From the IMG/VR virus record IMGVR_UViG_3300042473_000506: DNA of 64,000 nt, one strand, 5' to 3'. The first letter of the stretch is position 1, and each line of letters begins with the position of its first letter. Positions 13,691-42,272 of this stretch are shown piece after piece. Below the pieces are notes generated by a model. The model was not told where the DNA came from and made no database searches. It was given only the letters and a program-made list of their open reading frames with translations. The stretch is from a virus (Duplodnaviria > Heunggongvirae > Uroviricota > Caudoviricetes). The translations under genes and the position numbers were made by a program.

Positions 13691-14959
13691 TTATTTATAA
13701 TGCGCGGTCTGGCCGAATGGAGAAATTATGGCATCGTTACCGTGAATAATAAAGATAGTATCACAATAATCTTCATCTCCCCAGCTACCGCAGGGATAAC
13801 CGTCAGTAAACATAATAAACTTCTTGGGTTGAATATCATTGTACTTCATGAATTCCCAGTTTGCATCAAAATCAGTACCACCGCCACCTTGGCAATCGTA
13901 CTCGTTAATATCATCAGCAGTATCTCCGGTAAATTGTTTGTAACCGTATACGTTAGTATCAAAACACCACAAATCTAATTTAAAGTCCTTGTACTCATCC
14001 ATAATACCTTTGACTTCTGACAAGAAATCTTTAGCCATAGCATCTGAAATACTACCAGACATATCGATTGCTACAGATACGTCAATAGTTTCTTCATTCA
14101 TCATACCTGGCAAGATAGCGCCACATTGTTGACTCTTGCGGTTAGGGCGAGCAAAGCTAAAATTGCTTTTAAGAATACTTTGGATATTCATGCGCAACAG
14201 TTGTCGCCAGTCCATCTTTGGCTCAGTAAAGTCTTTGATCATTCTAGCAATACCTGCAGGCACTTTACCTGCACCTGCTGATTGAGCAGCCGCTACCATA
14301 GCTTCTTTGATCTCATCACGGATTTGTTTCTTTTCTTCTGCAGTCAAACGTGGCCGGCCCTTACCACTTCCGTTAATTTCTTCTCCATCTTTGCCTTCAC
14401 CTTCCCCATCTTCACCCTCACCATCTAGGTGTTCGTCGAGCAATTCCCCTAATTGGGAAATATCAATCTTTTCAGCCTTGTCGTAAAGGTCCTGATAAAT
14501 CTGCTCGTAACTCCATCCGCGATATTTGTCGTCCTGGAAAATCTTAATAAAGCTAGGAACTGTACCGATACGTTCGTCTTTAAGAATTTGGTTAGCGGCA
14601 TAGTCTGCGGCAATGTTTGACAGTTGAGGGTCGCGCCCGTCTCGCCGACCCATATGATCAAATACATTATGGAGGACCTCGTGTGCAAAGCCAAACTCTG
14701 CTTCCTTAGGAGTAAGTTTATTTACAAATCCTAAATTAAAATAAAAATTGCGACCATCTGTTGCAAGGGTTTGACACCAGTCGCTAGCCTCTACCATTTT
14801 CATTCGGGTAGCAAGATTACCAAAAAACGGATGGCGGAGCAAGAGCCCAACTCGTGCGGTAATTAGTTTATCGAGAATTTTAGCTTTTTCACTTTCGCTA
14901 AAAGTTTTACCTAACCAATCTTGTTTCTTTTGTTTTTCTTGTTTCATTACTGCGGACAT
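13691..14959 (-). CDS. Putative metallopeptidase plus VWA-like domain protein (DUF2201-type), partner of MoxR ATPase
   Basis: ATDG...AHEVLH (HExxH), acidic/Gly linker, MIDAS motif AIDMSGS, GGGTDF, FTDG. Confidence 0.88.
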   Translation of the reverse strand: MSAVMKQEKQKKQDWLGKTFSESEKAKILDKLITARVGLLLRHPFFGNLATRMKMVEASDWCQTLATDGRNFYFNLGFVNKLTPKEAEFGFAHEVLHNVFDHMGRRDGRDPQLSNIAADYAANQILKDERIGTVPSFIKIFQDDKYRGWSYEQIYQDLYDKAEKIDISQLGELLDEHLDGEGEDGEGEGKDGEEINGSGKGRPRLTAEEKKQIRDEIKEAMVAAAQSAGAGKVPAGIARMIKDFTEPKMDWRQLLRMNIQSILKSNFSFARPNRKSQQCGAILPGMMNEETIDVSVAIDMSGSISDAMAKDFLSEVKGIMDEYKDFKLDLWCFDTNVYGYKQFTGDTADDINEYDCQGGGGTDFDANWEFMKYNDIQPKKFIMFTDGYPCGSWGDEDYCDTIFIIHGNDAIISPFGQTAHYK

Positions 14960-14985
14960 TTATTACTCCTAGTTGCGATAGTACT

Positions 14986-15014
14986 ATTATACATTCAATT
15001 TATCAAAAGAGCAA
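14986..15014 (-). promoter_or_regulatory. Sigma70-type promoter for the VWA gene
   Basis: TTGCTC-17 nt-TATAAT on the - strand; AGGAG RBS downstream. Confidence 0.65.
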
Positions 15015-15016
15015 GT

Positions 15017-15035
15017 AAAAAGGCCCCTAAGGGCC
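15017..15035 (-). terminator. Intrinsic terminator after the MoxR ATPase gene
   Basis: GGCCC-TTAG-GGGCC followed by TTTTT on the - strand, just after the stop at 15040. Confidence 0.6.
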
Positions 15036-15039
15036 AATT

Positions 15040-16122
15040 TTAACCTTCCATTGCCTGGATAATGTACTTGCCGTACTTATCGTGGAACTTGTCAAAGTTC
15101 TTCAATTTGCTAGCATCAAACGGCAGTTGATAGTTAGTCAACGCAACCTTTGCACCCATAACAACTAATTCAGTTGGGAAGTTATCCATCATGAATCCAA
15201 AGAAGTTGTCTGCCATTTCATCCCAGTTCTTAGCTTTCTTTTTATCAGCTTCTTGGAGCTCGTAGCACAGGCTAATAGTCAACGAATACATAGCAGAGAT
15301 TTCTTTGATATCCGATTTCTTAATCTTACCTGCTAAGATATCTTCTGGTTTCGGCATCTGTTTAGCAACCTTGCGGTGTGCCATAAATTTAACAGCAAGG
15401 CCCTCACCGATAGCACCTGCAATCAAATCAGTTAATGTGTTTTCTGGAACATCATCTTCCTCCAACAATTCGGATACAAATGACCACGAGCGAGGAGTAG
15501 CAAATGAGCGTGAGCTAGACTTTGGATCAAAGTCATACAAGTCCTGCTTGGCAAAACCAATATAACCGACAACCTGTTCGTGAATTCTATTGTTAACTGC
15601 CCACTGATGCCAGTCTTCAAAATCTGTACGGAGTTCCAAATGCAGGAAACGGTTAGCCAACGGAGCAGGCATACGATAAGTAACACCCTTGTCAGTTTCA
15701 CGGTTACCTGCGGCAACAATGCTAACACCTTTTGGCAATTGATAAGTACCAACACGACGATTCAATACTAACTGGAAAGCCGCTGCCTGTGTAGCAGGAG
15801 CCGCAGAGTTCAATTCATCCAAAAACAGAATAGCAGTAGACTCTGGATCTGTAGGCAGTTCTGCAGGAGGTGCCCAAGTCATTGTATTGGAAGTAGAATT
15901 GTAATACGGAATACCTTTAATGTCAGTAGGTTCCCATAAACTCAAACGAACGTCGATGACTTCGCGATCTGACTCATCGCCTAGTTGTTTAACAATATCG
16001 GATTTACCAATACCGGGGGGACCCCACATAAAAACCGGACGTTGCTTTTTCAAGCATTTACGGATAGCTGCCTTAGCTTCGTTTGGACCAACTGTGCGAT
16101 TTGCGGAAATTTCTTTTGACAT
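15040..16122 (-). CDS. MoxR-like AAA+ ATPase
   Basis: Walker A GPPGIGKS, Walker B ILFLDELN, AAGN, PLANRF, TPRSW. Confidence 0.92.
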   Translation of the reverse strand: MSKEISANRTVGPNEAKAAIRKCLKKQRPVFMWGPPGIGKSDIVKQLGDESDREVIDVRLSLWEPTDIKGIPYYNSTSNTMTWAPPAELPTDPESTAILFLDELNSAAPATQAAAFQLVLNRRVGTYQLPKGVSIVAAGNRETDKGVTYRMPAPLANRFLHLELRTDFEDWHQWAVNNRIHEQVVGYIGFAKQDLYDFDPKSSSRSFATPRSWSFVSELLEEDDVPENTLTDLIAGAIGEGLAVKFMAHRKVAKQMPKPEDILAGKIKKSDIKEISAMYSLTISLCYELQEADKKKAKNWDEMADNFFGFMMDNFPTELVVMGAKVALTNYQLPFDASKLKNFDKFHDKYGKYIIQAMEG

Positions 16123-19084: not shown

Positions 19085-19933
19085 TCAAGTACCCCATTCG
19101 TTCTTAAACAATGGAACTTGCAATCTATCGCTATAACGGAGTCCGTTTTTCATAGCGGCTATTGCTACTGTTTTATTATTTAATGCGTAAACACTCTCTA
19201 CTCCACCTACCGGCATCAAATATACATGGCCAGTAAATCCTTCAGCGCGGAATTCTTCTGTAGCCCTTAGTGCATCTTCGATATCTTGTTCTGTTTCTAC
19301 AACAAACTTCAAATATGCTGTTCCATAATTCTCATAGTCGCAAACAACTTTGGGTTTAATAGCATCTTTCCAGGGCTCGCCGCTTGCCGGCAGTTTAGCA
19401 CTTACGCTAAATGTAATCTCTCTATCATCTCCGCCGAATGTCCAGTCTGTTAGATATTCTTTAAACTTTTCAGTTAAACGCATTGTACCGTTAGTTTCAA
19501 AAGTAATTTCTTTAAGACCTTTCATGCAAGGTTGATTCAGCAAATCTGGATAGGCCTTTTGCCACCCCAACAACGGCTCACCACCCGTGATAACAAGATG
19601 TTCGTCACGCCATTCTTTAAACGGCAATGTATCAACTACAGCCTTAGCAAGACCTTCAGTTTCGATCATCGGGCTTAGGTCTTTAAATGCAGGATGCCAA
19701 CTTGCATAACTGTCGCAGCCTGTGCTAACTAGCGGAAGTGATTTGTATTCTGCAAATTCAACAGCACGTTCTGCAATTTTATCTGCTTCTGCGCTCAGTT
19801 CACCGCGTGGCATACCAAAACCTTGACAGGTAAAGTTGCAGCCATATGTACGTAAGAATACAGAAGGGACGCCCATATAACGCCCTTCTCCTTGGATTGA
19901 ATAGAATAGTTCGGATACTTTAATTTTGCTCAT
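19085..19933 (-). CDS. queE: 7-carboxy-7-deazaguanine synthase (radical SAM)
   Basis: ELFYSIQGEG, VFLRTYGC, VITGGEPLL, FETNGT, SVSAKL, YLKFVV, YSDRLQ; Cys motif expanded to Cx3Cx36C. Confidence 0.9.
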   Translation of the reverse strand: MSKIKVSELFYSIQGEGRYMGVPSVFLRTYGCNFTCQGFGMPRGELSAEADKIAERAVEFAEYKSLPLVSTGCDSYASWHPAFKDLSPMIETEGLAKAVVDTLPFKEWRDEHLVITGGEPLLGWQKAYPDLLNQPCMKGLKEITFETNGTMRLTEKFKEYLTDWTFGGDDREITFSVSAKLPASGEPWKDAIKPKVVCDYENYGTAYLKFVVETEQDIEDALRATEEFRAEGFTGHVYLMPVGGVESVYALNNKTVAIAAMKNGLRYSDRLQVPLFKNEWGT

Positions 19934-19963
19934 TTAATAGACCTTTAAGAGAGGTGATAAGTA

Positions 19964-19991
19964 ATTATACATTATTATTTAGGCGTGTCAA
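19964..19991 (-). promoter_or_regulatory. Sigma70-type promoter for queE, with an embedded TAAATA late-type box
   Basis: TTGACA-16 nt-TATAAT on the - strand; TAAATA at 19976-19981 lies in the spacer. Confidence 0.7.
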
Positions 19992-20009
19992 CTATAAAGG
20001 TAAAAATAA

Positions 20010-20861
20010 ATGAAAACAGTAGTAATCTGGCAGATACATAATTATTGCACAGGCGGCTGCGAATATTGTCCAAAAACATTTTGGGGAGGTGACAAACCTA
20101 GACACGTAGATGAATATCTAGCAGTAGCAAACACATTTATAGACCATTATGATAAAAAATTAGGAAGACATATTGACTGGATATTTAATGGTGGCGATCC
20201 GTTGGAATTTTTTGATTTCCCTGCACTGTTAAAACTATGTAAAGAAAATGGCGGAAATACTACACTACATACTGCCGGAGGAAAACTTTGGATGGATTGG
20301 TGGGCTATAGAACCTCATGTAGATTTTTTAAATCTTACATGCCACTCTTGGCAAAATTTAAATCTTATTAAATTTATTGTAAAAGCATTTCAAAAAAAAT
20401 ATAAACCATTTCATTTAGGTGTTCCTATTCGACCTGATTTTTTTGATGAAGATCTTAACCGCATAGATGAGCTCGAATCTTCACTAGGAATTAAAGTTGG
20501 AAAAGAATTATTATATGTACAGGCTAGCAACTATCTAGGAAGATTAAACTATACCAAAGACCAGTTGATATATTTGTTTGGGGAAGAATGGGTTTTAAAC
20601 AATCATGTCAGTGTTAACAAAACTTTTGAAGAAAGATCTGCAGAGAGTGTGCAGTCTAATCCTGTCTTTACAGGCAAACTATGTAATACAGGTATAGAAA
20701 GAATTAATATAAGTGGAGAAGGTTGGGTCCGAGGAAGCGATTGTAATAATTCGCCTTTGGGAAATATATTTGATGGTAGTTTAGAACTACCATCTACTCC
20801 TCAAATTTGTAAAATGCAAGCCTGCATTTCGTCCGCAGATCAACTTATAACAAAATTTTAA
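20010..20861 (+). CDS. Radical SAM protein with Cys-rich (SPASM/twitch-like) C-terminus
   Basis: YCTGGCEYC (Cx3Cx2C), FNGGDPL, C-terminal CNTG...C...C..QAC. Confidence 0.82.
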   Translation: MKTVVIWQIHNYCTGGCEYCPKTFWGGDKPRHVDEYLAVANTFIDHYDKKLGRHIDWIFNGGDPLEFFDFPALLKLCKENGGNTTLHTAGGKLWMDWWAIEPHVDFLNLTCHSWQNLNLIKFIVKAFQKKYKPFHLGVPIRPDFFDEDLNRIDELESSLGIKVGKELLYVQASNYLGRLNYTKDQLIYLFGEEWVLNNHVSVNKTFEERSAESVQSNPVFTGKLCNTGIERINISGEGWVRGSDCNNSPLGNIFDGSLELPSTPQICKMQACISSADQLITKF

Positions 20862-21133
20862 GTATTAAAAATATTAGACCATTGTTTTAATTTTTCAATC
20901 TTAGCAGCTTTTGCAACTTCTAAGTGCTCTAACGATATTACATTCTTTTCCAACATAATATCGATCATTGCTAACATATCGCCTAATTCTTCTTCAAGGT
21001 GTTCTCGATTAGTTTTGGACTTACCTGGCTTGAAGTTGTCAATACCGAATCGACTAATCTTACTTACTGCTTGAATTACTTCAGCACATTCTTCTTGTAG
21101 AATGTCCATCACTTCTTTAGTTTGACTGTTCAT
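20858..21133 (-). CDS. MazG-like NTP pyrophosphohydrolase
   Basis: LQEECAEVIQAVSK...LEEELGDMLA (EExxE...EExGD). Confidence 0.8.
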   Translation of the reverse strand: MNSQTKEVMDILQEECAEVIQAVSKISRFGIDNFKPGKSKTNREHLEEELGDMLAMIDIMLEKNVISLEHLEVAKAAKIEKLKQWSNIFNT

Positions 21134-21138
21134 TTATA

Positions 21139-21315
21139 TTATCCGTTATTGAGTTGTTCTTGGAATCTGCTAGTAAATGCATCTTTTAGGCATGAGTATT
21201 TTTGTTGTGTCTTTGAGTTTACATAAAAGATCCAAGTTTGCTCGTTGATAATTTCTATATTTTTGATAATAAATGTTGTTCTATCAGCCGATTGCCAGAC
21301 ACTTCCAATTTTCAT
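21139..21315 (-). CDS. Small hypothetical protein (58 aa, not in the ORF track)
   Basis: My translation: MKIGSVWQSADRTTF...FTSRFQEQLNNG; ATGA overlap with the 21312 gene and fills the gap exactly. Confidence 0.65.
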   Translation of the reverse strand: MKIGSVWQSADRTTFIIKNIEIINEQTWIFYVNSKTQQKYSCLKDAFTSRFQEQLNNG

Positions 21316-21770
21316 TTTACTGCCTTTTCTTCTAGATATTCTGTATTATGGATCCACTTATTCTTTACAAGAAAACCCCATTCTCGTTTTTGTGGACCAG
21401 GCATGAACATTGTCCAACAGTCTGTTCCTTCTTTAAGCTCAACACGGTGATAGCTATTAGCAGGGCAAATACGGCAGTGCCCAGGACCACGCCAATGCCG
21501 TGTTTCACTGATCTTGGCACCTTGTGAATCAAAGTTAGGAGTCCATTCATAATAACCGCCTTTTAAGATAAGTGTAGCGTAAGACCATGGATGATCATGT
21601 ACATCATCGGGGTCTGACTTAAGAAACTTGTGAATGAACACATTAAAGGGGAAATGCTTTCTGTCTTTAAGAAAAATGTAGTAGCGTTCGAGGTAAGGTT
21701 CATTATTTTGTCTATCCATTACAATTCTTTTGCGACCAACACGTTCTAAAAAGTTTAGAAACCATTTCAT
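21312..21770 (-). CDS. Cupin-fold protein
   Basis: VHDHPW...ILKGGYYEW...YHRVEL...CWTMF resembles cupin motifs 1 and 2 with metal-binding His/Glu. Confidence 0.65.
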   Translation of the reverse strand: MKWFLNFLERVGRKRIVMDRQNNEPYLERYYIFLKDRKHFPFNVFIHKFLKSDPDDVHDHPWSYATLILKGGYYEWTPNFDSQGAKISETRHWRGPGHCRICPANSYHRVELKEGTDCWTMFMPGPQKREWGFLVKNKWIHNTEYLEEKAVK

Positions 21771-22840
21771 TTGATCATCTCCAGTAATTTATTTGCACTA
21801 AAGAATAGTTCTGTTAAATCAGCTGCCTGCTTGCGAACCTGCGGCACCCGCTTGTCATAATGAGACATAGTAACAATAATGTGATGACATAATTCTTGTC
21901 TATGTGCTAGGTAACTGTTCCAGTCCTTAGTCCACTCACTAGGATATTTGAATCCTTCATAATACATTTCACTATAACTTAATCTATCCGGCACCATAGG
22001 TATAGCATCTACTAATGCACCTTCGTAGCAACTAATACCCAGTGTCTCTTGCAAATTTGCACTGAAAATAATCTTAGCACGACCTAGCAACTTGTGATAT
22101 TCATGCTTGTCCAACTGCGTATCTTGACACACAATAAATTCATATTGTGGTAAGTGTGTAGCCAAGTCACGGAAAATTTCAACCTGTTTCTCTGGAGCAA
22201 TACGATGTGGGAACAAGATAAGATCATGCTTGGAACTGGTGTTATAGTTCTCTAAGGTATCAGCCATATATTCCATGGGCCACCCTGTACGAACAATTTG
22301 CTTGTCCTGCATATAACGCATAGAACCTGTTCGGAAATCAATACCTAACAAATTTTCCATAAACATTTCAATATGAAATTTTGTTGCAAAATAGTTGTGA
22401 TCAAATGCGTGGAAGAAACTCTTTTCGGCGTGTCTAACCCAGGGCCTGTTGCCAACAAGACGACCTAGGAAGTCTTGAGGGTCATAACTACCGGCGTGCC
22501 ATAGTCCATGTGTTGTTACTGGAATACCCAGCAACTCACTCATATACTTGAGATTGATGATACCAGGGTGCCAAGCATCAGTAAATATAAAATGATCACC
22601 TGCATGAACGGCTCCGTCGCAAAATAGCCGACCCATCTGCTCAACCTGCCGAGCTTTGTAGATGTTTGTGCCGCCAAAATTAAGAAAAGCCCCAGGGGTA
22701 GTAGCACTAGGAATATCTGTGGGACCAGAGATAATTTGAACATTGTGTCCTGCCTTTTTAAGTAGATCAGGTACATGAGTCTTCCATTGACCCGTATACC
22801 TTGTCTCGACAGATTCTAAATCAACGAGAAAAATTGTCAT
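21767..22840 (-). CDS. Glycosyltransferase (GT-B fold, GT4-like)
   Basis: C-terminal FPHRIAPEKQ...IIFSANLQETLGISCYEG...PMVPDRLSYSEMY is the GT-B nucleotide-sugar-binding ExFGxxxxE-type signature. Confidence 0.8.
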   Translation of the reverse strand: MTIFLVDLESVETRYTGQWKTHVPDLLKKAGHNVQIISGPTDIPSATTPGAFLNFGGTNIYKARQVEQMGRLFCDGAVHAGDHFIFTDAWHPGIINLKYMSELLGIPVTTHGLWHAGSYDPQDFLGRLVGNRPWVRHAEKSFFHAFDHNYFATKFHIEMFMENLLGIDFRTGSMRYMQDKQIVRTGWPMEYMADTLENYNTSSKHDLILFPHRIAPEKQVEIFRDLATHLPQYEFIVCQDTQLDKHEYHKLLGRAKIIFSANLQETLGISCYEGALVDAIPMVPDRLSYSEMYYEGFKYPSEWTKDWNSYLAHRQELCHHIIVTMSHYDKRVPQVRKQAADLTELFFSANKLLEMIK

Positions 22841-23063
22841 TGTTTTGGCCTCTAGGCTTATAATCCTTGCGGTAGTTTTTACGATCGCCCTGATAAGGAG
22901 GACGAGAAAAATACCTGTATTCCTGTGACCTATACAAGTCTGAAGGGTTATAAGGAAGGAGGTTAAATCTGCAATGATCTAACCAAGCATCGAGATCATC
23001 AAAGATCTTTTCAACTTCGGGTTTCATACGAAGAGTTTTCTGAATGTAGGCAGGTTGTGCCAT
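22821..23063 (-). CDS. Hypothetical protein
   Basis: 80-aa ORF in the operon; AAAGG upstream. Confidence 0.65.
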   Translation of the reverse strand: MAQPAYIQKTLRMKPEVEKIFDDLDAWLDHCRFNLLPYNPSDLYRSQEYRYFSRPPYQGDRKNYRKDYKPRGQNNDNFSR

Positions 23064-23069
23064 AATGTT

Positions 23070-23471
23070 TTACCTTTGTGTAGTATTAAAGGGTTGAGGA
23101 AATTTAATGAAGCAGCCATTCTCGCCGTCTTCACTTACGTCAATCCAGATCTCACGACCTGGATATCTTGCCGAAATGGTTCCATGAAGATCACGGCTTA
23201 TCATTTCACAGGATTTGTGGTTAAGTTCGAGTGTACCATCTGCATAGCAGTGCTCTAACCAACGCTTAAACTGAATAAACTCAATATCACGATCATCGTG
23301 AAATACTTGAATATAGATTTTAAAATGGAAAATGTGACGGTGCGGAGTACCGAGGAAACTAACATCGTACATGTTGCCTGTGGCAAGTTTGGGGTCTGTA
23401 GCCGCAGCCGGATACATATGAACACCCTCCTTACGAAAGGTGACCCAAATCATATTAAGTTCTTGATTCAT
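23070..23471 (-). CDS. QueD-paralog T-fold protein (DpdL-like, predicted CDG decarboxylase)
   Basis: LGTPHRHIF, i.e. LxxxHRHxF in place of the QueD CxxxHGH; also DRDIEFIQFK and SCEMI. Confidence 0.7.
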   Translation of the reverse strand: MNQELNMIWVTFRKEGVHMYPAAATDPKLATGNMYDVSFLGTPHRHIFHFKIYIQVFHDDRDIEFIQFKRWLEHCYADGTLELNHKSCEMISRDLHGTISARYPGREIWIDVSEDGENGCFIKFPQPFNTTQR

Positions 23472-23644
23472 TACTGTGCTTTAACCTTTGTGGTTTTTTT
23501 AGCGGGTGCCGATTTTTCAGGAAGATTATCTTTCATCATATTATAGATTTCCCATAACTTCCAGTCAATGCTTTCGAGCAATTTAAATAATTTTTCTTCT
23601 GAACTTTGTTGATTTGCTTGTTTTGTAACTTTAGAGTTAATCAT
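23471..23644 (-). CDS. Small hypothetical protein (57 aa, not in the ORF track)
   Basis: My translation: MINSKVTKQANQQSSEEKLFKLLESIDWKLWEIYNMMKDNLPEKSAPAKKTTKVKAQ; ATGA and TAATG overlaps on the two sides. Confidence 0.7.
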   Translation of the reverse strand: MINSKVTKQANQQSSEEKLFKLLESIDWKLWEIYNMMKDNLPEKSAPAKKTTKVKAQ

Positions 23645-24153
23645 TTTATTACCTTGTCGTTTTTATATTGTGCCCAGTCTGTAAACTTACTACGATCCAT
23701 TAGTGTGTGTAGACTGTGGGACCATACACCGGGATTAGTTGCCTTAAAATCTTTGTCGTCAATCTTTAACATAGTGTTATAGTTCCAAAGACGAATGTAA
23801 GGAATAGGTACACGAATTTGTGGAATAAAATTATCACGCTCGCAAAGCCCGCCTTCGTGGAATTCTTCTACTTGGTGAATTGGAATATCCAATGAACACA
23901 GGTATTCTTTATCAAGGAAGAACATAATCATTTCTTCCCAGACTTTGTGTTCTTCGTAAGTTTGTGGATTATAACTATGATTTGCGCCAAAGAAAATATG
24001 CTCGCAACCTTGCAAGTTTAGTGCAATATGCTCGCTAGATTGAACTCCTGTAACAAACAATGTTTTCATGCCGTATGCAGGAGTGTGCTCAACTTCAGTA
24101 CCAGTAAAGAAAATTACATCTTCACTAATACCTGTATCGTAATCACGCTTCAT
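23641..24153 (-). CDS. Uncharacterised enzyme-like protein in the deazaguanine cluster
   Basis: 170-aa ORF with FTGTEVEHTPAYG, HIFFGANHSY, KIDD.DF.ATNPGVW; coupled to its neighbours. Confidence 0.7.
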   Translation of the reverse strand: MKRDYDTGISEDVIFFTGTEVEHTPAYGMKTLFVTGVQSSEHIALNLQGCEHIFFGANHSYNPQTYEEHKVWEEMIMFFLDKEYLCSLDIPIHQVEEFHEGGLCERDNFIPQIRVPIPYIRLWNYNTMLKIDDKDFKATNPGVWSHSLHTLMDRSKFTDWAQYKNDKVIK

Positions 24154-24427
24154 TTTTCTTCTTACGTTTAGTTTTAGTAGTATTAACTTTAACAGAATTC
24201 TCGTACTCTGTCAAGGCTTTTTGGACATCTCTGAGTAATGCCTCATCGTCCCATTCTAAAACAGTTTTACCGTCTGGAAATGTAGTAACAGTTAAATGAC
24301 TGCCTTTTACCACAGTGGGATCATTTGGAAATGTTAATCTAGCACTGCCAATAGTACCGGGCATTTCCATAGACTCTGATATTTCGGCAGACATAATAAT
24401 GTCTGTTTTCTTTTTACCTGTTGCCAT
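24143..24427 (-). CDS. Hypothetical protein
   Basis: 94-aa ORF in the operon. Confidence 0.65.
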   Translation of the reverse strand: MATGKKKTDIIMSAEISESMEMPGTIGSARLTFPNDPTVVKGSHLTVTTFPDGKTVLEWDDEALLRDVQKALTEYENSVKVNTTKTKRKKKNEA

Positions 24428-24428
24428 A

Positions 24429-24632
24429 TTATTCCTTAAAATAACTTTCCATTATGTCCAACTTGTCTTGATATTCAGCAATCAATGCTACTTCTTTTTC
24501 AATAGCATCCATTAAGTCAGTATGGTCATGTAGTGCCATGGGATTGCTCAACATAATGTCTACATTCATTTTGTGCTTGAAAATGTGTGCTTTAAAATGG
24601 TGTTTTAATACGCTAATAATTTCTTGTCTCAT
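24429..24632 (-). CDS. Hypothetical protein
   Basis: 67-aa ORF with an ATGA overlap to the TGT-like gene. Confidence 0.65.
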   Translation of the reverse strand: MRQEIISVLKHHFKAHIFKHKMNVDIMLSNPMALHDHTDLMDAIEKEVALIAEYQDKLDIMESYFKE

Positions 24633-26287
24633 TCTATATCTCCTAATGTGCCTTCTTCAAGTTTTCGTAGTTCGTCGTCATCTGGGTTAGCAAGATCAAT
24701 TTCTTCAACCTTAGTAACTTCTTCAATTTCGAACAAGTTATTAAACTTGTTTTGAGCAGGACCGCCTTGTAGTCGAGCACCTTCTAAACTACGCAGGAAT
24801 GGACCAGCTTGTTCGATCATTGCAAATGCATCTGCTTTAGTAGCAGTATTAAATAAGTCTTCAACAAAGCTGTTGAAGTATAAGATATTACGGGGAACCC
24901 AATCACTAAACTCATCGCTCATATCCTGTCCCTTGACTTTCTTCCATTGCTTCCAAGTCAGCTTGTCTTTAGATTTAGCAATCTCAATGTCCATTAATTG
25001 TTGAGCACGTTGAACAGCAACAATATGACATTCGACATTATGTCCCATCATCAATGCATAGGCAAAGCTATCCCAACTTGTTCTATTTGGAATCTTACCT
25101 AATTTGTTAAGTCTAGGTACAACATGGTAGTGTTCTGGTTCTAAATGGTTAAATTCAATTTTTCCACCACGTGGACCAAAACCTAATTCTTCGTCTGTTT
25201 TACGAACGCCTAAATCGTAGTAGGCAATGTCAGCCATTGTTAGTCTGCGACCGATTGACGATTCGAAAGGGAACGGGATATCTGATCCTGATAGTGCTTT
25301 GTTATCTGGTGCCTTGTCCATAATAACACTCCACCTTTTTGGCGTGTGGACTGCGTTTGTGTAGACAAGTCCGTGCGCTGTTGCAATGAACGGTGAGGCG
25401 CAGTCAAAAGATATGGTAATTTCTTCATTGATGTGTTTCCTGATTTGTCTTTGAATTAAAGTTAAGTAGCAACTCCAGTCAAGTTGCGCTGTACCCAAGA
25501 AGTGGATCCAGTTTTTGCCCTTCAGCAAACCATCTTCTCTAAGTGTCATTAAACGCTTGAGAGTAATATCCATCTTGCACATGTTAGCACCACCAAAGGC
25601 CCAACCTTCTGCTTCACGCCCTGCATACTTACCTGCCGGGTCGCTAAATTCTTTTACACCTGCATACCACTTTTCAGCAGTGTCCCAATCACTACCTTGC
25701 AGAACGTTGAGCCATTTAGTTTGACCCATTCTGTTCATCAAAAAGTAATCGTTATTGTATCGAGTCTTATCTAAGCAGTCATCAAATGTCTTTAGTCCAG
25801 TTTTAGGACTGTGAATGTGATCACATGCCCATGTTGGAACGTCTAGCATCATTGACCAATCGGCTGTGACTTCGAGCCACTCGAGAATCTTCTGACGAGT
25901 CTTAGTAGCTTCCTTGCCTTCAAAGTCTAACCAGTCAAACTTAAGAACACCCTTACCAATCTGGTATCCACCTGAGTCGCCTAAGATCATAGTGTTATTA
26001 CGATCACGCTGTTGAATCATGGACTCTTGTTCTAAACTCTTAGTAAGATCTAATTGTGCATGACCCGCAGAGTACAGACCGTATTTGTAAGTAAAGTATC
26101 CTTGTTCAGGATTTAAAAAGTTCATACCTTCGATACCACGATCAAAACCTGCAGGAATACGATCTGTTGGTACGAATTCACCTAGTCGTTGTTTAGCAAC
26201 ATAGGTACTGTAGAAACTACTAATTGCAGGCAAATAGACTGCATAGTCTTTCTGTAATGGTGTTAGGTTAACTTGTTGTTTCGTCAT
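24629..26287 (-). CDS. dpdA: tRNA-guanine-transglycosylase-like protein (DNA deazaguanine transglycosylase, DpdA family)
   Basis: ILGDSGGYQ (TGT catalytic Asp motif), MMLDVP, LNVLQG, GWAFGG, IHFLG, ISFDCASP; no Zn-binding tRNA-TGT motif seen; clustered with queE next to the DNA polymerase. Confidence 0.78.
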   Translation of the reverse strand: MTKQQVNLTPLQKDYAVYLPAISSFYSTYVAKQRLGEFVPTDRIPAGFDRGIEGMNFLNPEQGYFTYKYGLYSAGHAQLDLTKSLEQESMIQQRDRNNTMILGDSGGYQIGKGVLKFDWLDFEGKEATKTRQKILEWLEVTADWSMMLDVPTWACDHIHSPKTGLKTFDDCLDKTRYNNDYFLMNRMGQTKWLNVLQGSDWDTAEKWYAGVKEFSDPAGKYAGREAEGWAFGGANMCKMDITLKRLMTLREDGLLKGKNWIHFLGTAQLDWSCYLTLIQRQIRKHINEEITISFDCASPFIATAHGLVYTNAVHTPKRWSVIMDKAPDNKALSGSDIPFPFESSIGRRLTMADIAYYDLGVRKTDEELGFGPRGGKIEFNHLEPEHYHVVPRLNKLGKIPNRTSWDSFAYALMMGHNVECHIVAVQRAQQLMDIEIAKSKDKLTWKQWKKVKGQDMSDEFSDWVPRNILYFNSFVEDLFNTATKADAFAMIEQAGPFLRSLEGARLQGGPAQNKFNNLFEIEEVTKVEEIDLANPDDDELRKLEEGTLGDIE

Positions 26288-26639
26288 GTTCTTTACTTAA
26301 TATTATTGTAGCATCTAGTTGTATCTTGGCTTTCTTTAAATTACCCAAGGCAATGTTAATAGCAGGGTGTTCTTTAGCCAATACTTCGAGCTGCAATTCT
26401 TCGTCACGCTTTTTTCGTGCCCAGTCAAGTAATGCTTCTGCCTCACTAGTTAATGCTACATTGGCAAAGTTTGAAGATACTTCTTTCCAAACTTGCCCGT
26501 CGTATACTTCTATGGTATTGATATTTGTATTATAGCGCAACATTCCCGCAGATTGCCCACCGGAAGGAATGTACGGATTCATTGGACTACCTCCTTGTAC
26601 CTGGAGATATCGACCTGAATGAGCTATTCCTTTTATCAT
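26268..26639 (-). CDS. Hypothetical protein
   Basis: 123-aa ORF coupled to its neighbours. Confidence 0.65.
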   Translation of the reverse strand: MIKGIAHSGRYLQVQGGSPMNPYIPSGGQSAGMLRYNTNINTIEVYDGQVWKEVSSNFANVALTSEAEALLDWARKKRDEELQLEVLAKEHPAINIALGNLKKAKIQLDATIILSKEHDETTS

Positions 26640-27370
26640 GTCTGTGCAGGAATGATATACTTGTAAGTAGCTAAACCGCTGTCAAGTGTAATCTGTAGAG
26701 CACCTTCGTTGCTTAAACTCATCATAGTATTATTAACATCTGATGCTTTAAGAATTGCAAGTACGGGAGCAACAGGCCAAGTCCATCCTTTATTTAGGTT
26801 GCCGGTGACACCTGTAGCAAAAATAAATTCACCACCGTGGCTTGCTTGATCACCAAAAGTAAACTTCAACTTGTCACCATCTGTCTTAGCCAAGAAAGTT
26901 GTGTGCTCATTGTTAGCGGCTGCTTGAAACGCAAATCTTTGCACACTAGCTAAACTTGGAGCAACTTCAACATCCCACTTAACACCACGGAACTTAACAG
27001 TCTTTAACTTTTCGTTAATGATTTCAGTGTTCATAAAGCGGTAGTCATTCTTAAAGTCGCCCCCTTTGTTTTCAAAGTGTAGGCCTGTTGGAATTTCTTC
27101 ACCGTTGCGATCTTGTTTAACAACTTCAATCTTTGCATCTTCTTTGTATTCTGGGCAATCTAGCAAATACTTTAATTTGTTCATTTGCGGCATACCAAAA
27201 ACGCCAGTCATGTCTGCTTGCGGGCTAGCAGTTTCACCATACATAATAACTGTACGGTCATCGGCCATACTGTCGATAGTGGTCTTTTTATCGTCGCCTG
27301 TAATTTTAACGATGTTTAAGAAGCCCAGGCTATGTGTGTGGCTTACGATGTCTTGTAGAATGTCTTTCAT
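26636..27370 (-). CDS. Sliding clamp (T4 gp45-like DNA polymerase processivity factor)
   Basis: 244 aa with a two-domain beta-clamp-like pattern; immediately downstream of the family B polymerase; clamp loader present in the window. Confidence 0.6.
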   Translation of the reverse strand: MKDILQDIVSHTHSLGFLNIVKITGDDKKTTIDSMADDRTVIMYGETASPQADMTGVFGMPQMNKLKYLLDCPEYKEDAKIEVVKQDRNGEEIPTGLHFENKGGDFKNDYRFMNTEIINEKLKTVKFRGVKWDVEVAPSLASVQRFAFQAAANNEHTTFLAKTDGDKLKFTFGDQASHGGEFIFATGVTGNLNKGWTWPVAPVLAILKASDVNNTMMSLSNEGALQITLDSGLATYKYIIPAQT

Positions 27371-27425: not shown

Positions 27426-30098
27426 TCAATCAAAGGAAAATAATTTGCCAAAGGTATTGTCTTGGGTAGTTGATTCTAAATCCCAATCCAGCACACCGAT
27501 GAGGTTGTCCAGTTTGTTGTTAATGATAGCAGTTTCCATTTCGCTGTGATCGAATGGCAGGTCTTGGAACCATTTAGGTAATCGCATCTCATCGACCGGA
27601 TAAGCAATGGATGTGTAGCCTAATGGATTGTCTTTAACTTTACAAACAATGACCTTCATGCCGTCAACAATGCCCATTGAGTATTTGTCACCGTTCATGC
27701 GTTTTAGCGTATTCCAGTTAATAGCAGCACGGACATGCCCTGGCATATTAGCCTTGCCTTGTTTAGCTTCCTTGGCTTGATACTCTGTGATGTTGTTAGC
27801 TCGTTTGGGACTACCCTTCTCCCAACCTGGACGGGCTTTGAACTCAGTCCGGAACGCACTGATCATTTCTAGAATTTCTTGTTCCTCTGCACCATTCAGT
27901 ACTCGAGTAAGAACTTCTTCTAAGAACTTTTGCATAAATTCGGGAGTATCACTACGCTTAAGATCTAGACCCATAGCTTTGATCTTACCTGGCTTACCGT
28001 CAGTGTCCTGTCTCTTACCATCTTTGTCGTAATACAATACTGCATAACGTTTCTTGGTAATGAACAGGCCTTTAACAGCAACAATTTCTCGCCCACCTTT
28101 GATAACCTCACCGCGTGTCTTTGGGCAATGAAATGCATCCAACATGAACTGCGGGAATGTTGCATTTACGTTTTCGGCAATCTGATCATACAACTGAATA
28201 ACAACATCTCTATCCCAAGGGATTAGCTTTTTGTTAATATCAGTCTTTAGCGTATTATAAGCTGAGAAGTAGCAACTGTCAGTATCACCGTAGATAATAC
28301 TCTTACCTACGTGATCAAACTCACCGGTAATCATTTCATTGACTTTGCCTGCCATATGCTTGGCAATCTGCCTGCCAACAAGTGTAGTGGACTGCCCAAT
28401 ACGCTTATCAAAGAATCTGCAACCAGGATTCAAAATAGCACCATACAAACTATTCAAGTTAATCTTCTTGACCAACTGTCGCTTGTCCCAATACTCTTCT
28501 TCGATCTTGTTACCTGCTTCGATAGCTGCCTTGAGCTTCTTCTGCATATCTTTACGTTCAGCATACCATCGCTTTAACAGTCCAGGAATAATGCCTTCAT
28601 GTTCATAGGTAAAGATAGTGCCGTTGGCGCTTAACATCCAAGGTTGATTACTGTCAAAGATTAACTTATATGCTTCAGCTGCACTCATAATATCACTTTG
28701 ATCGTTTTCCCAATCAACTGTAATTTCAAATGCACGGTCCTGTTGCATAACTGCTTCATACTCTAGGCTACCAAACATACCTTCCCAAGCCGCCGCAAAT
28801 GATTTTTTATGAACCATCATTTGTTCATCGATATGTTGATCTGTCCTGTCCTGACGTAACTGACCGATGATAGTTTCTGGACCCATGTTGAGCGCACGAA
28901 TAGCTGACGGATACAATGAGTTAATGTCAATAGATCCGATCCAGTCGTGGATACCTTTCTTGGGATATGCAACATAAGCACCTGCTGCCTGATTATTTGC
29001 GTCCTCGTCACGTTTGGCACGATTGGGCACAATGAGACCACGGTGGTGGGCTTCGTTTACAATAGCCTGTTCAGTTACAGCAACTGCACCCATTGTGGTC
29101 TGTAATAGCACCGTACATTCGTGTGCCAGTGTGTTAGCAAGATCGATAAACTTTAGTTTCTTATCCAGCTTGTCTAACAATGCGGTATCTTGTCTGTTGT
29201 ACTCAATGAACTTACGGAAGTCATTGTTATATAACTGATCAAGTGTACCTTCATAGTGAGTCTTGCTCTCGCCTACTTCCATCTCTCCAATGGCATCCAG
29301 TCGGTAAGTGTGTCGCTCTTCATATGTGTATTTGCGGTACAGCTCGAGACTGTCCAGATGAACACGACCAACCAGATCATAAGTAACAGCCGCTTTTCCA
29401 TATTTTTCGTACTCTCTCTTCTTGGGAAATTGACCCCACAGACAAAATCTACGAGTGTCTTCTTTACTCAGTGCTTTGATAACTCTGTTAACTGTGTAAG
29501 GGATATCATAGCCTTCACTGTTCCATCCACTGAGAATGTCAGCATCTTGAATGAGATCCAAAAACGCATCTAACATCTCTGCTTCAGTTTCAAACAGATG
29601 TGTATTAGGAAAGTCCTTAACTAACGCTGTTGCTTGCTCCATTGTCAGGGTCTTTGGAGGAACAGCAAAGCAGACCAGTGTGTCTAACCATTGTAGGTGA
29701 ACAGCAATCGATGTAATAGGCATGAAAGCATCCTCGGGGGTGCTATAACCTCTTTCAGGATCAAAGTCCACCTCAATGTCGAAGAACGCCACATTGAGTT
29801 TAGGCGGTTCGTGATTGAGATAGTTTTCTTCTAGGGTTTTGAATACAGTGTTGATGTCTGATTCATACAGTCTGTGGCTGCTGTGGATCCGTTGTTCTTT
29901 TTGAAAGTCTTTGTAGGACCTTGTGACAACTTTATTTAGATTTTCACCGTAAATTGATTTGTATTTTCCGCGTTGATCGGGATAATAAAATGTATATCTT
30001 GCAGGAAACTCCTGAAAGATTCTGCCTTTCTTTAGATCACGCTCAACGACATGCACAATGTCTTTGTCGCGATCCCACATGGCATCGACGTAGCTCAT
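27426..30098 (-). CDS. Family B DNA polymerase with 3'-5' exonuclease
   Basis: Exo motifs FDIE, GWNSEGYD, YNRQD; pol motifs DINSLYPS, KINLNSLYG, YGDTDS, KKRY, GLDLKRSD. Start moved to the ATG at 30098 (MSYVD), which follows an AAGGAG RBS. No intein. Confidence 0.97.
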   Translation of the reverse strand: MSYVDAMWDRDKDIVHVVERDLKKGRIFQEFPARYTFYYPDQRGKYKSIYGENLNKVVTRSYKDFQKEQRIHSSHRLYESDINTVFKTLEENYLNHEPPKLNVAFFDIEVDFDPERGYSTPEDAFMPITSIAVHLQWLDTLVCFAVPPKTLTMEQATALVKDFPNTHLFETEAEMLDAFLDLIQDADILSGWNSEGYDIPYTVNRVIKALSKEDTRRFCLWGQFPKKREYEKYGKAAVTYDLVGRVHLDSLELYRKYTYEERHTYRLDAIGEMEVGESKTHYEGTLDQLYNNDFRKFIEYNRQDTALLDKLDKKLKFIDLANTLAHECTVLLQTTMGAVAVTEQAIVNEAHHRGLIVPNRAKRDEDANNQAAGAYVAYPKKGIHDWIGSIDINSLYPSAIRALNMGPETIIGQLRQDRTDQHIDEQMMVHKKSFAAAWEGMFGSLEYEAVMQQDRAFEITVDWENDQSDIMSAAEAYKLIFDSNQPWMLSANGTIFTYEHEGIIPGLLKRWYAERKDMQKKLKAAIEAGNKIEEEYWDKRQLVKKINLNSLYGAILNPGCRFFDKRIGQSTTLVGRQIAKHMAGKVNEMITGEFDHVGKSIIYGDTDSCYFSAYNTLKTDINKKLIPWDRDVVIQLYDQIAENVNATFPQFMLDAFHCPKTRGEVIKGGREIVAVKGLFITKKRYAVLYYDKDGKRQDTDGKPGKIKAMGLDLKRSDTPEFMQKFLEEVLTRVLNGAEEQEILEMISAFRTEFKARPGWEKGSPKRANNITEYQAKEAKQGKANMPGHVRAAINWNTLKRMNGDKYSMGIVDGMKVIVCKVKDNPLGYTSIAYPVDEMRLPKWFQDLPFDHSEMETAIINNKLDNLIGVLDWDLESTTQDNTFGKLFSFD

Positions 30099-30167
30099 AT
30101 AGTTCTCCTTACCGCTTATGGCCGGCAACCGTTCTTGTGATCATTTATAGCTGATCAAACTTTTCTC

Positions 30168-30467
30168 TTATATATTTAACAATCTAATATAGCCGATGAC
30201 GTCTATAGTGACTAACAGTAGGTAGTTGGCTACCATACCTGTGCTCTTTCGAGTCCATGATGCCCATGCAAAAATTGCACATTGCAAAATAAATATCGGA
30301 TACAGATAGAAAAACAGCGGATCAGTTGCACCTGCTGCCAATGTCAGAGAGCAGCCTAAACTCATTAACCATGCTGAAATTTCTAACGAAAATCGGACAG
30401 GCCATTCTCGATAGTCATTCCTGGCCCAGTTGTACACGTTTCCAAGTACAGTTGTAAGTCTAGTCAT
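30168..30467 (-). CDS. Small membrane protein (about 3 TM segments)
   Basis: Three hydrophobic stretches in 99 aa. Confidence 0.65.
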   Translation of the reverse strand: MTRLTTVLGNVYNWARNDYREWPVRFSLEISAWLMSLGCSLTLAAGATDPLFFYLYPIFILQCAIFAWASWTRKSTGMVANYLLLVTIDVIGYIRLLNI

Positions 30468-41218: not shown

Positions 41219-41222
41219 AGTG

Positions 41223-41239: not shown

Positions 41240-41244
41240 TCATT

Positions 41245-41697
41245 ATGAGTATCAGCGACGACCCGCAATATTGGATCAACTTACAGTGGCCAGCGGCTCC
41301 TAATCAAGACGATTATTCTGTATTTTCTAGCTATTGTATAGGTCGTGTTTTACTGTTAGGTAGCACTCGACTGCTGTTGCCCTTGTGTACAGAAGCGTGG
41401 GACGTAAATCCTGTATATGATGACCCTAAAATCCAGTCTAGGGATTGGTTTACACTAGACAAACACTGGGATACTATTATCGTAGACGGTGCGTTAGCAT
41501 TTGGTAAAGATTACTGCGAGCAGTTGTTAAAAGCAGTATTGCCAAACTGTGATCGTTTTATTGCCCGTAGTTTCCTAAACCCTAACTGGCCCACTAAGTA
41601 TGCTCAATATTTTCCTAGAGCACACGAATTAACACCTGTTCCACAAGAACACCCCATCAACGAAGTTTATACATTTTACATATGGAACAACAAGTAA
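41245..41697 (+). CDS. Hypothetical protein (possible degenerate Rossmann/methyltransferase-like fold)
   Basis: VLLLGST..L, WDTIIVDGAL and FIARSF resemble class I MTase motifs I and IV; weak. Confidence 0.55.
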   Translation: MSISDDPQYWINLQWPAAPNQDDYSVFSSYCIGRVLLLGSTRLLLPLCTEAWDVNPVYDDPKIQSRDWFTLDKHWDTIIVDGALAFGKDYCEQLLKAVLPNCDRFIARSFLNPNWPTKYAQYFPRAHELTPVPQEHPINEVYTFYIWNNK

Positions 41698-42272
41698 TAT
41701 TAGCCATGTACTCAGGCGGCCTGGACAGCCTAGGTATGATCTACAAACTGTTAACAGAACCCGAGTATAAACACTATGTTCTACACATACATCACATACA
41801 CCATCACAATGTAGAACATAGAGATCGTGCTGAAGCTGTAGTTGTTGACCGTGTGCTGAAAGAATTAGAAAGTATGGGCTATAGTTTTATCTTCAGTGAA
41901 AGTGAGATAGGCTCACAGCCCTACAATGGGCAGTTCATGTATGACACAGACAGCATCAACTTCTTTGCTGGCTATATTTGCTCTGTTAATCCACGTATTG
42001 TACGAGTTGCTATGGGGATGCAGGCCAACGATCATAACCATAGTTTAGAGGAACGCAGAATACGTGCCAATGCTATACTGACAGCATTTACACCTGTGGA
42101 GAAAATATATCCTGTGTTAGATATGACCAAGCGTGAAATATACGATATGTTACCAGAAGGTTTGCGTAACATGTTTTGGTCGTGCCGGCGTCCAGTGTAC
42201 AGTGAAAAAAATATCGCACCTTGTCTAAAGTGCGATACTTGTGTGAAACTGCGTGAGCAGGGTATACGTTAA
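41682..42272 (+). CDS. queC: QueC-like PP-loop ATPase (7-cyano-7-deazaguanine synthase family)
   Basis: YSGGLDS PP-loop; C-terminal SCRRP...CLKCDTC Zn motif; shorter than canonical QueC. Confidence 0.72.
   Translation: MEQQVILAMYSGGLDSLGMIYKLLTEPEYKHYVLHIHHIHHHNVEHRDRAEAVVVDRVLKELESMGYSFIFSESEIGSQPYNGQFMYDTDSINFFAGYICSVNPRIVRVAMGMQANDHNHSLEERRIRANAILTAFTPVEKIYPVLDMTKREIYDMLPEGLRNMFWSCRRPVYSEKNIAPCLKCDTCVKLREQGIR

Follow-up and report, generated by a model that had tools for sequence, protein, structure and literature searches.

A predicted deazaguanine DNA-modification cluster with a conserved GT4-like glycosyltransferase beside the clamp and polymerase genes of a freshwater jumbo phage

A deazaguanine gene cluster beside the clamp and polymerase genes

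A 64,000-nucleotide stretch of Caudoviricetes DNA (IMG/VR record IMGVR_UViG_3300042473_000506; hereafter the window, meaning that whole stretch) contains, at positions 19085 to 26287, a cluster of genes that very probably places a 7-deazaguanine in DNA. The cluster encodes a protein whose predicted fold is that of the tRNA-guanine transglycosylase (TGT) superfamily and which we call DpdA-like, a candidate DpdL, a QueE-like protein and a GT4-like glycosyltransferase (GT). Our favoured reading is that the modification is linked to the replisome and that the GT adds a sugar to the 7-deazaguanine, and we give this reading as a whole a probability of about 0.5. Its parts are not equally strong: the clamp-tethered deazaguanine modification itself, for which homology and gene context argue, is very likely, and the glycosylation step, to which gene co-occurrence and an intact catalytic motif point, stands close to even odds.

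The source is a recurrent freshwater jumbo phage of about 350-375 kb, because the exact DpdA-like protein is found by word-index search on 58 contigs with sizes up to 376 kb, a related contig of 353 kb has a completeness rating of ~99%, and the stretch is present in at least 24 lake-water or freshwater metagenome runs. The original prediction for this DNA, made from its letters and open reading frames, had described a deazaguanine DNA-modification cluster with extra tailoring enzymes. The genes that it named are all intact open reading frames at the positions predicted, and the cluster itself stands: a TGT-fold enzyme, DpdL and QueE lie within a replication module. Also borne out is the description of a run that feeds into the clamp and polymerase genes, as the clamp-like gene (26636-27370) and the family B polymerase gene (27426-30128) lie directly upstream. 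The main features are listed below, with lengths in amino acids (aa); conservation is counted over 26 related IMG/VR contigs (the relatives) that span the cluster.

27426..30128, minus strand: family B DNA polymerase (Pfam DNA_pol_B, 5e-38; phrog_262, 8e-199)
26636..27370, minus strand: sliding-clamp-like protein (PCNA/gp45-like), 244 aa, from Atlas neighbours and the annotation of its homologue in phage Phosso
24629..26287, minus strand: DpdA-like base-exchange enzyme of predicted TGT fold, 552 aa, from the AlphaFold2 (AF2) model and Foldseek, motifs and hhalign
24722..24754, minus strand: putative clamp-docking peptide QNKFNNLFEIE, residues 512-522 in the tail of the DpdA-like protein, from the motif and a complex model
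23641..24153, minus strand: conserved 170-aa protein (P0123), in 26/26 relatives
23070..23471, minus strand: DpdL, QueD-like, 133 aa, proposed decarboxylase of 7-carboxy-7-deazaguanine (CDG), from the motif LGTPHRHIF
22821..23063, minus strand: 80-aa protein between DpdL and the GT, in 26/26 relatives; no family match
21767..22840, minus strand: GT4-like (GT-B type) glycosyltransferase, 357 aa, from the EX7E motif and homologue matches
19085..19933, minus strand: QueE-like radical S-adenosylmethionine (SAM) enzyme (CDG synthase), phrog_2076 'QueE-like', 2e-52

The order polymerase, clamp, DpdA, 170-aa protein, DpdL, 80-aa protein, GT ... QueE is kept across the 26 contigs. The 170-aa protein, DpdL and the 80-aa protein occur in all 26, and the GT and QueE in 25 each. 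The remaining genes of the region are more variable, with a cupin, FolE and a phosphoribosyltransferase (PRTase) in 20 contigs each, a HIT gene in 16, a MazG gene in six and the radical SAM gene that is inverted in the window in four.

A predicted transglycosylase of the TGT superfamily

The 552-aa protein is built from a barrel core of ~360 aa, a helical carboxy-terminal domain and a disordered tail. It has no match in Pfam, PHROG or NCBIfam, and its identification as a divergent transglycosylase of the TGT superfamily comes from structural modelling. The AF2 model has a mean predicted local distance difference test score (pLDDT) of 88.7 and a predicted template modelling score (pTM) of 0.89, and the 50 listed Foldseek matches in the PDB are all tRNA-guanine transglycosylases, with a probability of 1.00 and E values of 3e-6 to 2e-5. 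The family is large: an exhaustive search finds 871 clusters at 50% identity, and a word-index search finds more than 5,000 proteins, none of which carries a name. Across 60 family members GDSGGFQ, HFLG and (F/Y)DxASP do not vary and LDxP hardly does; residues D104, S105, G107, P151, H262, G265 and D295 are invariant and D149 is conserved in at least 90%. We take the catalytic residues to match D102, D156 and D280 of TGT, by motif likeness and without structural superposition.

The Pfam TGT model (PF01702) does not match the window protein, and two of the 60 family members reach it at E 0.011. A family profile search against PDB sequences found nothing, the CxCxxC zinc motif of tRNA TGTs does not occur in the 552-aa sequence, and no cysteine is invariant in the family. 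In profile comparison (hhalign) the family aligns with gp123 of Acidovorax phage ACP17 (96.5% probability, E 1e-9), which adjoins the DpdL gene of that phage, and weakly with DpdA3 of phage phiST (CGPG_00065; 72% probability, E 3e-5, 84 columns). The window protein is also 43% identical to gp168 of Pseudomonas phage PA5oct. Because the phiST match is weak, we name the protein DpdA-like and do not file it in DpdA3.

Within the helical carboxy-terminal domain, phmmer weakly aligns residues 442-506 (24770-24964, minus strand) with a 'chromosome segregation in meiosis' protein of Csm3/Swi3 type (E 0.0016). Proteins of this type are replication-fork protection factors, and the match may be due to chance or may mark a fork-associated domain.

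A polymerase-like peptide that may dock the enzyme on the sliding clamp

The 244-aa protein upstream of the transglycosylase has no Pfam match and falls in phrog_12062, which is without a function label. Its feature neighbours in the Atlas are PCNA_N and gp45 sliding-clamp (gp45-slide_C) clusters, with scores of 0.93-0.98, and its Phosso homologue carries a sliding clamp annotation. The polymerase ends in ...DNTFGKLFSFD (27426-27460, minus strand), presumably a clamp-binding peptide, and the pattern N-x-F-x-x-L-F is common to this terminus and to the disordered tail of the DpdA-like protein. The pairing of the two peptides is kept in most of ~60 related contigs, some of which have near-identical copies.

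When three copies of the clamp were modelled with residues 496-552 of the DpdA-like protein, the complex scored 0.65, against 0.00 for the best control. The score mark used is reached by 51 of 78 solved complexes and by 2 of 108 mismatched pairs, in a calibration set-up that differs from this three-copy job. Three runs had at least 64% of contacts in common and a partner pLDDT of at least 45. The modelled interface comprises residues 509-524 on the DpdA-like side and residues 38-42, 123-130, 196-199, 222-224 and 239-244 of the clamp. As clamp-peptide complexes have already been solved, the pass may reflect likeness to them. The DpdA-like protein probably acts on DNA, at the replication fork, because its tail repeats the carboxy-terminal peptide of the polymerase and the model places it in the clamp pocket. 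Such a docking tail points to a coupling of base exchange to the fork, and could explain the complete replacement of G that is brought about by some enzymes of this kind.

Candidate genes for synthesis of the base

The 133-aa protein is identified as DpdL by its sequence motif. LGTPHRHIF fits the signature LxxxHRHxF, which separates DpdL from QueD (CxxxHGH) (PMC10516641), and in 19 phage and bacterial sequences, phiST included, L40, H44, H46 and F48 are invariant and R45 is conserved in at least 90%. The protein is 56% identical to ACP17 gp125 (E 4e-37) and 31% identical to phiST CGPG_00067 (E 2e-5), and an hhalign comparison of its profile with the QueD of ACP17 is weak (5%). It has no match in the PDB or Pfam; the phiST DpdL matches 6-pyruvoyltetrahydropterin synthase (PTPS) at 99.9% in HHpred (PMC10516641).

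DpdL genes are found in genomes in which FolE, QueD, QueE and DpdA are present and QueC is absent (PMC10516641). The related contigs match this context, with FolE in five of five, QueD in four of five and Pfam QueC in none of the five. The window itself differs, as it lacks folE and queD, in agreement with the original prediction, and has a QueC-like gene, described below.

The QueE-like protein is matched by five NCBIfam QueE models at 1e-13 to 3e-10 (40-51 bits, with cut-offs of 200-300). An amino-terminal CNFTC is present, the third cysteine being off the usual spacing, and the protein is 31% identical to PA5oct gp162.

A predicted glycosyltransferase that accompanies the transglycosylase in phages and bacteria

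The 357-aa protein is assigned as a GT4-like glycosyltransferase from motif conservation and remote matches. Among 20 homologues of 36-85% identity E265-x7-E273 does not vary, and EX7E is the motif of the GT4-type carboxy-terminal domain. Four of the 20 homologues match Pfam GT families weakly and below cut-off (Glycos_transf_1, Glyco_trans_1_2 and GT4-conflict), the best being the ACP17 homologue (Glycos_transf_1 2.5e-4; GT4-conflict 1.4e-3), and Glycos_transf_1 (PF00534) is found in 29-100% of the members of the neighbouring Atlas clusters. Phmmer and profile searches against the PDB returned nothing. Sequence does not support a kinship with queuosine mannosyltransferase, as a search of five related contigs for QTMAN_N (PF12038) was negative.

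The GT gene adjoins DpdL in the PA5oct-like phages, ACP17, Phosso and Synechococcus cyanophage BUCT-ZZ01, and at most a few kb separate the two genes in Xanthomonas phages X1 and BUDD and Burkholderia phage BCSR5. In addition, when prokaryotes were scanned with one genome for each species, 14 alphaproteobacterial genomes proved to carry the GT (40-52% identity), with Pelagibacterium, Ochrobactrum, Devosia, Azospirillum, Methylobacterium, Aurantimonas and a Roseobacter among their genera. All 14 bacterial GT genes adjoin a member of the transglycosylase family of the window (profile E 1e-55 to 1e-127), and a third gene, which matches the Pfam family Vut_1 (YhhQ family), accompanies the pair in 13 of the 14. 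The Vut_1 match reaches 28.5 bits in one locus, with a cut-off of 27.2; weaker matches occupy equivalent positions in four more genomes and, probably, a fifth. The YhhQ family includes the preQ0/preQ1 importer of Escherichia coli. DpdL is present in 6 of the 14 genomes, among them Methylobacterium, Aurantimonas and one alphaproteobacterial metagenome-assembled genome, and was not detected within the examined flanks of the other eight modules.

Loci L111-L124 and L126, for example L113:6055-9053: bacterial module of DpdA-like, YhhQ/Vut_1-like and GT genes

As judged from these sequences, the transglycosylase and GT pair is the most widely conserved unit and is tied to deazaguanine biology by an independent, YhhQ-like gene. 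The link of the GT to the cluster, which had been suggested from the window, thus extends to 25 of the 26 related contigs, four phages in which it adjoins DpdL, three in which it lies near, and 14 alphaproteobacteria.

GmrSD and two integrase-like genes also belong to the island of Ochrobactrum sp. MYb379. In 7 of the 14 bacterial loci the DpdA-like gene is adjoined by a gene for a conserved protein of ~850 aa (for instance L113:3430-5991, minus strand) with no Pfam match. This gene is mostly on the opposite strand and could encode an effector or restriction partner of the bacterial module.

A literature search found no published description of a glycosylated deazaguanine in DNA, as the original prediction had stated. 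To our knowledge, a sugar-bearing 7-deazaguanine would be the first glycosylated purine in any DNA.

Small conserved proteins and accessory genes

The AF2 model of the universally conserved 170-aa protein has a mean pLDDT of 85.7. The protein belongs to no known family in Pfam, PHROG or NCBIfam. Fold searches gave a best E of 0.058 with Foldseek in the PDB and a best Z of 6.5, to a generic alpha/beta fold, in the VIA wide search; the AlphaFold database gave only a nameless homologue and the Atlas no usable match. Homologues are ACP17 gp122, which adjoins the DpdA of that phage (28-31% identity), and a PA5oct protein (44%) encoded 28 kb from the cluster. Hhalign comparisons with the Phosso 'glycosylase', with phiST CGPG_00066 and with the middle gene of the bacterial modules were each negative. 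When dpdL and dpdA of ACP17 were co-expressed in E. coli, no deoxy-7-deazaguanosine (dDG) was made (PMC10516641), and the 170-aa protein, or alternatively the GT, may be the factor missing from that reconstitution.

The other features of the cluster and of its surroundings are as follows.

26268..26639, minus strand: 123-aa protein, whose gene ends overlap the clamp and DpdA genes; in 16/26 related contigs
24429..24632, minus strand: 67-aa accessory protein, phrog_1811; in 7/26 relatives
24143..24427, minus strand: 94-aa accessory protein; in 3/26 relatives
21312..21770, minus strand: cupin, 'cysteine dioxygenase'-like, 152 aa (phrog_4786, 2.4e-40); overlaps the GT stop codon by 4 nt
20858..21133, minus strand: MazG-like NTP pyrophosphohydrolase, 91 aa (Pfam MazG, 29.2 bits, cut-off 22; phrog_4856, 8e-23)
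20010..20861, plus strand: inverted radical SAM protein, CX3CX2C (C-TGG-C-EY-C), with a Cys-rich carboxy terminus
41682..42272, plus strand: short QueC-like PP-loop protein, 196 aa (Pfam QueC, 26.5 bits, cut-off 22)
23540..23568, minus strand: sigma70-like promoter ahead of the run DpdL, 80-aa protein, GT and cupin (11/12, consensus match only)
19964..19991, minus strand: sigma70 promoter TTGACA-16-TATAAT ahead of QueE (12/12, consensus match only)

The cupin and the radical SAM protein had been proposed to tailor the inserted base, and the case for such a role is weak. The cupin has the HxH...H metal residues and is found in 20 of the 26 relatives, but its family is common, with 112 phage records, mostly from Mycobacterium, Gordonia and Burkholderia phages, and no que genes were found in the two phage neighbourhoods examined. 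The cupin was also not found in the cluster regions of PA5oct, ACP17 and Phosso. The radical SAM gene is a rare accessory, present in 4 of the 26 relatives. Its Pfam Radical_SAM score (21.2 bits) is under the cut-off of 29.5, and most of its homologues carry PF04055. Three more contigs of the lineage have homologues of 45-56% identity with the same inverted placement, two of which adjoin QueE directly, with the third separated from it by a single HIT gene; relatives of the protein are essentially lacking from 50,697 phage records.

MazG recurs with deazaguanine genes, adjoining DpdL in phiST and QueD in the 353-kb relative. In the slot between the GT/cupin and QueE, the window is unusual in having MazG and the radical SAM gene where most relatives have FolE, PRTase and HIT genes. 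This slot is a hot spot for accessories of nucleotide metabolism (L094:7551-10705, L097:8848-11966, L001:12416-13380), which in the relatives comprise FolE, PRTase, HIT, an IMP dehydrogenase (IMPDH)/GMP-reductase-like gene and, once, a subtilisin-like peptidase.

The QueC-like protein is short and divergent, with an SGGLDS PP-loop and a carboxy-terminal cysteine cluster (C...CLKCDTC). The original prediction of such a gene 15 kb from the cluster is correct for the window, where the distance is ~15.4 kb, but five related contigs, of which one is ~99% complete, yielded no such gene. Essentially no relatives of the protein exist among the 50,697 phage records. The gene is an accessory of the window genome and lies in a separate plus-strand island. 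The island (40514-42272) is set among minus-strand structural genes and consists of a fatty-acid-desaturase-like gene (Pfam 2e-12, minus strand) followed, on the plus strand, by genes for a 150-aa protein and the QueC-like protein.

Transcription and other genes of the window

On the minus strand the order is polymerase, 244-aa clamp-like protein, 123-aa, 552-aa, 67-aa, 94-aa, 170-aa, 133-aa, 80-aa and 357-aa proteins, 152-aa cupin and 91-aa MazG, followed by the plus-strand radical SAM gene and QueE. Most adjoining genes in the cluster overlap, by 4-20 nt. The cluster had been described as one minus-strand run. The strand is as described, with the radical SAM gene inverted, but a single run is not borne out: because strong sigma70-like promoters precede DpdL and QueE, the cluster comprises at least three transcription units. 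The QueE promoter lies inside a 76-nt gap that QueE has in common with the diverging radical SAM gene. As consensus matches, these sigma70-type promoters suggest that the base-synthesis genes may be transcribed early, by the host polymerase.

The window also encodes a 5'-3' exonuclease, thymidylate synthase, dihydrofolate reductase (DHFR), a MoxR-type ATPase, tail-fibre-like proteins and giant structural proteins. It contains no tRNA, PRTase or HIT gene. The ThyA-like gene that adjoins DHFR has its best matches in ordinary thymidylate synthase families, and no pathway for hydroxymethylcytosine (hmC) or hydroxymethyluracil was recognised in the window. Just upstream of the polymerase lies an S-adenosylmethionine decarboxylase-like gene (30467-30820, minus strand; phrog_3125, 9e-22). 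A 422-aa protein at 13691-16122 (minus strand), paired with the MoxR-type AAA ATPase, bears the PHROGs label 'HNH endonuclease'; this name looks misleading, because of the MoxR pairing and because the syntenic counterparts in related contigs carry DUF2201 and DUF2201_N.

Proposed pathway and alternative explanations

From these folds, motifs, synteny and co-occurrence we infer the following substrate, product and order of steps. QueE would make CDG from 6-carboxytetrahydropterin (CPH4), with FolE and QueD coming from the host or from another part of the genome, and DpdL, by analogy with phiST, would turn CDG into 7-deazaguanine. The TGT-fold enzyme, which has no zinc-site motif and is broadly of the DpdA3 kind, would then swap guanine in DNA for 7-deazaguanine, held on the sliding clamp during replication by its polymerase-like tail peptide. 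Finally, the conserved GT4-like enzyme would most likely add a sugar to the deazaguanine, either on DNA or on the base before insertion, and the end product would be an undescribed DNA base. The 170-aa and 80-aa proteins may take part in some way, and MazG, the radical SAM protein, the cupin and the QueC-like protein would be accessories of the window genome or its sub-lineage. Tentatively, and at somewhat less than even odds, a sugar-bearing 7-deazaguanine may be present in the jumbo phages of the window, in PA5oct, ACP17, Phosso and BUCT-ZZ01 and in the alphaproteobacterial islands, with the GT4 enzyme as obligate partner of a new clamp-tethered subfamily of transglycosylases.

Several points weigh against a sugar on 7-deazaguanine. 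The base has no hydroxyl group, and therefore an O-glycoside would need a further step, or the product would be an unusual C- or N-glycoside. The window GT has no glycosyltransferase match in Pfam, phage RHph_I1_18 has no GT near its DpdL, and the eight bacterial modules in which DpdL was not detected suggest that the acceptor of the GT may not depend on the DpdL product. Also, phiST makes plain dDG with DpdL and no GT, so that the GT is not needed for the DpdL pathway, and as the window has a QueC-like gene the inserted base could be preQ0 or 7-amido-7-deazaguanine (ADG). Finally, the decarboxylase activity of DpdL has never been shown in vitro (PMC10516641).

Much of this would be accommodated if the cluster were a plain dDG system as in phiST, in which the GT-like protein does not modify the base, an explanation that we hold to be unlikely and still take seriously. 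The GT might then glycosylate another target, or be a non-catalytic or accessory partner of the transglycosylase, as DpdB assists the bacterial DpdA. The phiST precedent, where DpdL, MazG, QueE, FolE, QueD and DpdA3 yield dDG, supports it, as do the missing hydroxyl acceptor and the missing Pfam match, and the pairing of the GT with a TGT-like gene even where no DpdL was detected fits a protein partnership. Against it stand the EX7E motif and other polar residues, invariant over 36-85% identity, and the tight GT-DpdL adjacency that recurs in unrelated phage lineages; the nucleases that sense hypermodification and target PA5oct point the same way, but do not tell dDG from a larger adduct. Improbable, in our view, is a different deazaguanine end product, with the QueC-like protein making preQ0 or ADG, or the radical SAM protein or cupin making another C7 substituent, which an active GT would decorate. 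The QueC-like protein is above the Pfam cut-off with its PP-loop and cysteine cluster kept, radical SAM homologues of 45-56% identity are likewise inverted and adjoin QueE or lie one gene from it, the metal-binding histidines of the cupin are intact, and the YhhQ-like transporter of the bacterial modules belongs to a family of preQ0/preQ1 importers. However, the QueC-like gene belongs to a separate island and five related contigs yielded no copy of it, only 4 of the 26 relatives have the radical SAM gene, cupins of this family are common in phages, with no que genes nearby in the two contexts examined, and DpdL, which typically replaces QueC (PMC10516641), is universal in the lineage.

A pre-replicative route, in which the polymerase incorporates a deazaguanine nucleotide, MazG removes dGTP and the TGT-like enzyme has a minor role or none on DNA, has a small chance of being right. 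It would account for MazG in the cluster, for the PRTase (20/26), HIT (16/26) and, in one contig, IMPDH/GMP-reductase-like genes of the same slot, and for gp163 of PA5oct, a PRTase. But a PRTase can equally salvage guanine released by base exchange, the window has neither a PRTase nor a HIT gene, and the TGT-like enzyme is universal in the lineage, with its catalytic residues kept and a predicted clamp-docking peptide. The possibility that the TGT-like enzyme modifies tRNA, in the manner of queuosine or archaeosine, is hardly credible. Although all its listed fold matches are tRNA-guanine transglycosylases, it lacks their zinc-site motif, its gene lies between clamp and DNA-metabolism genes and carries the clamp peptide of the polymerase, the window has no tRNA gene, and in PA5oct, the phage of a relative, it is the DNA that resists enzymes cutting at G sites. 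Replisome-linked insertion of 7-deazaguanine, with a sugar added by the GT, remains the reading that we favour.

Implications for DNA modification in phages and bacteria

7-Deazaguanines are the main known purine modifications of phage DNA and defeat restriction enzymes as well as CRISPR nucleases. A sugar-decorated deazaguanine, if it exists, would be a new class of DNA base, and would explain the G modification of the PA5oct-type phages of P. aeruginosa. In bacteria, the combination of transglycosylase, YhhQ-like transporter and GT, in islands with restriction genes, points to an undescribed modification system on the host side. The transglycosylase family comprises thousands of metagenomic proteins that are invisible to Pfam, PHROGs and NCBIfam, and surveys therefore undercount deazaguanine DNA modification in large phages.

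Comparison with known systems

Analogues of the proposed glycosylation are the glucosyl-hydroxymethylcytosine of phage T4, made by alpha- and beta-glucosyltransferases, and the glycosylated queuosine of vertebrate tRNA, made by QTMAN and QTGAL. In each case a glycosyltransferase decorates a base that is already modified, as a second layer of protection or tuning. The acceptors differ, in that hmC and the cyclopentenediol of queuosine carry hydroxyls and 7-deazaguanine carries none.

The bacterial Dpd system (DpdA/DpdB/DpdC; dPreQ0, dADG; PMC10164549) is similar in that a TGT-superfamily enzyme puts a 7-deazaguanine into DNA and in its location in genomic islands. However, no DpdB or DpdC was recognised among the scanned proteins, the partners here being a GT, a YhhQ-like transporter and sometimes DpdL, and the Pfam TGT model does not recognise so divergent a transglycosylase.

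Closer in its base-synthesis genes is the dDG system of phiST (Cui, Hutinet et al., NAR 2023, PMC10516641), whose DNA carries dDG (PMC10516641). It has in common with the window QueE, the DpdL motif, a MazG-like gene and a distant TGT-like transglycosylase beside polymerase genes, and, like the relatives of the window, phiST has FolE and QueD but no QueC. It differs in that DpdA3 of phiST is 259 aa long, and in having no GT, no 170-aa partner and no clamp-docking tail.

In Acidovorax phage ACP17 the genes gp119-gp126 (QueD, FolE, gp122-gp125, QueE) contain the same five-gene core, namely the 170-aa-like gp122, the TGT-like gp123, the GT gp124 (33%), the DpdL gp125 (56%) and QueE. Unlike the source of the window, ACP17 is a T4-like phage of 156 kb; its gp123 has 424 aa and its cluster includes FolE and QueD.

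The Pseudomonas jumbo phage PA5oct (Wroclawvirus) is syntenic with the window, with polymerase, the clamp-like gp170, the transglycosylase gp168 (43%), the GT gp167 (43%), the DpdL gp166 (50%) and the QueE gp162 (31%), and differs in having a PRTase (gp163) and a short Rossmann epimerase-like protein (gp164) in place of the cupin, MazG and radical SAM protein. The preprint on this phage names only QueE and a PTPS and not gp166-168 (bioRxiv 10.1101/2025.03.31.646159). Its DNA resists G-site restriction enzymes, from which the authors deduce that G is modified within GA and/or GG, and the phage is restricted by END nucleases that sense hypermodified DNA (bioRxiv 10.1101/2025.03.31.646159).

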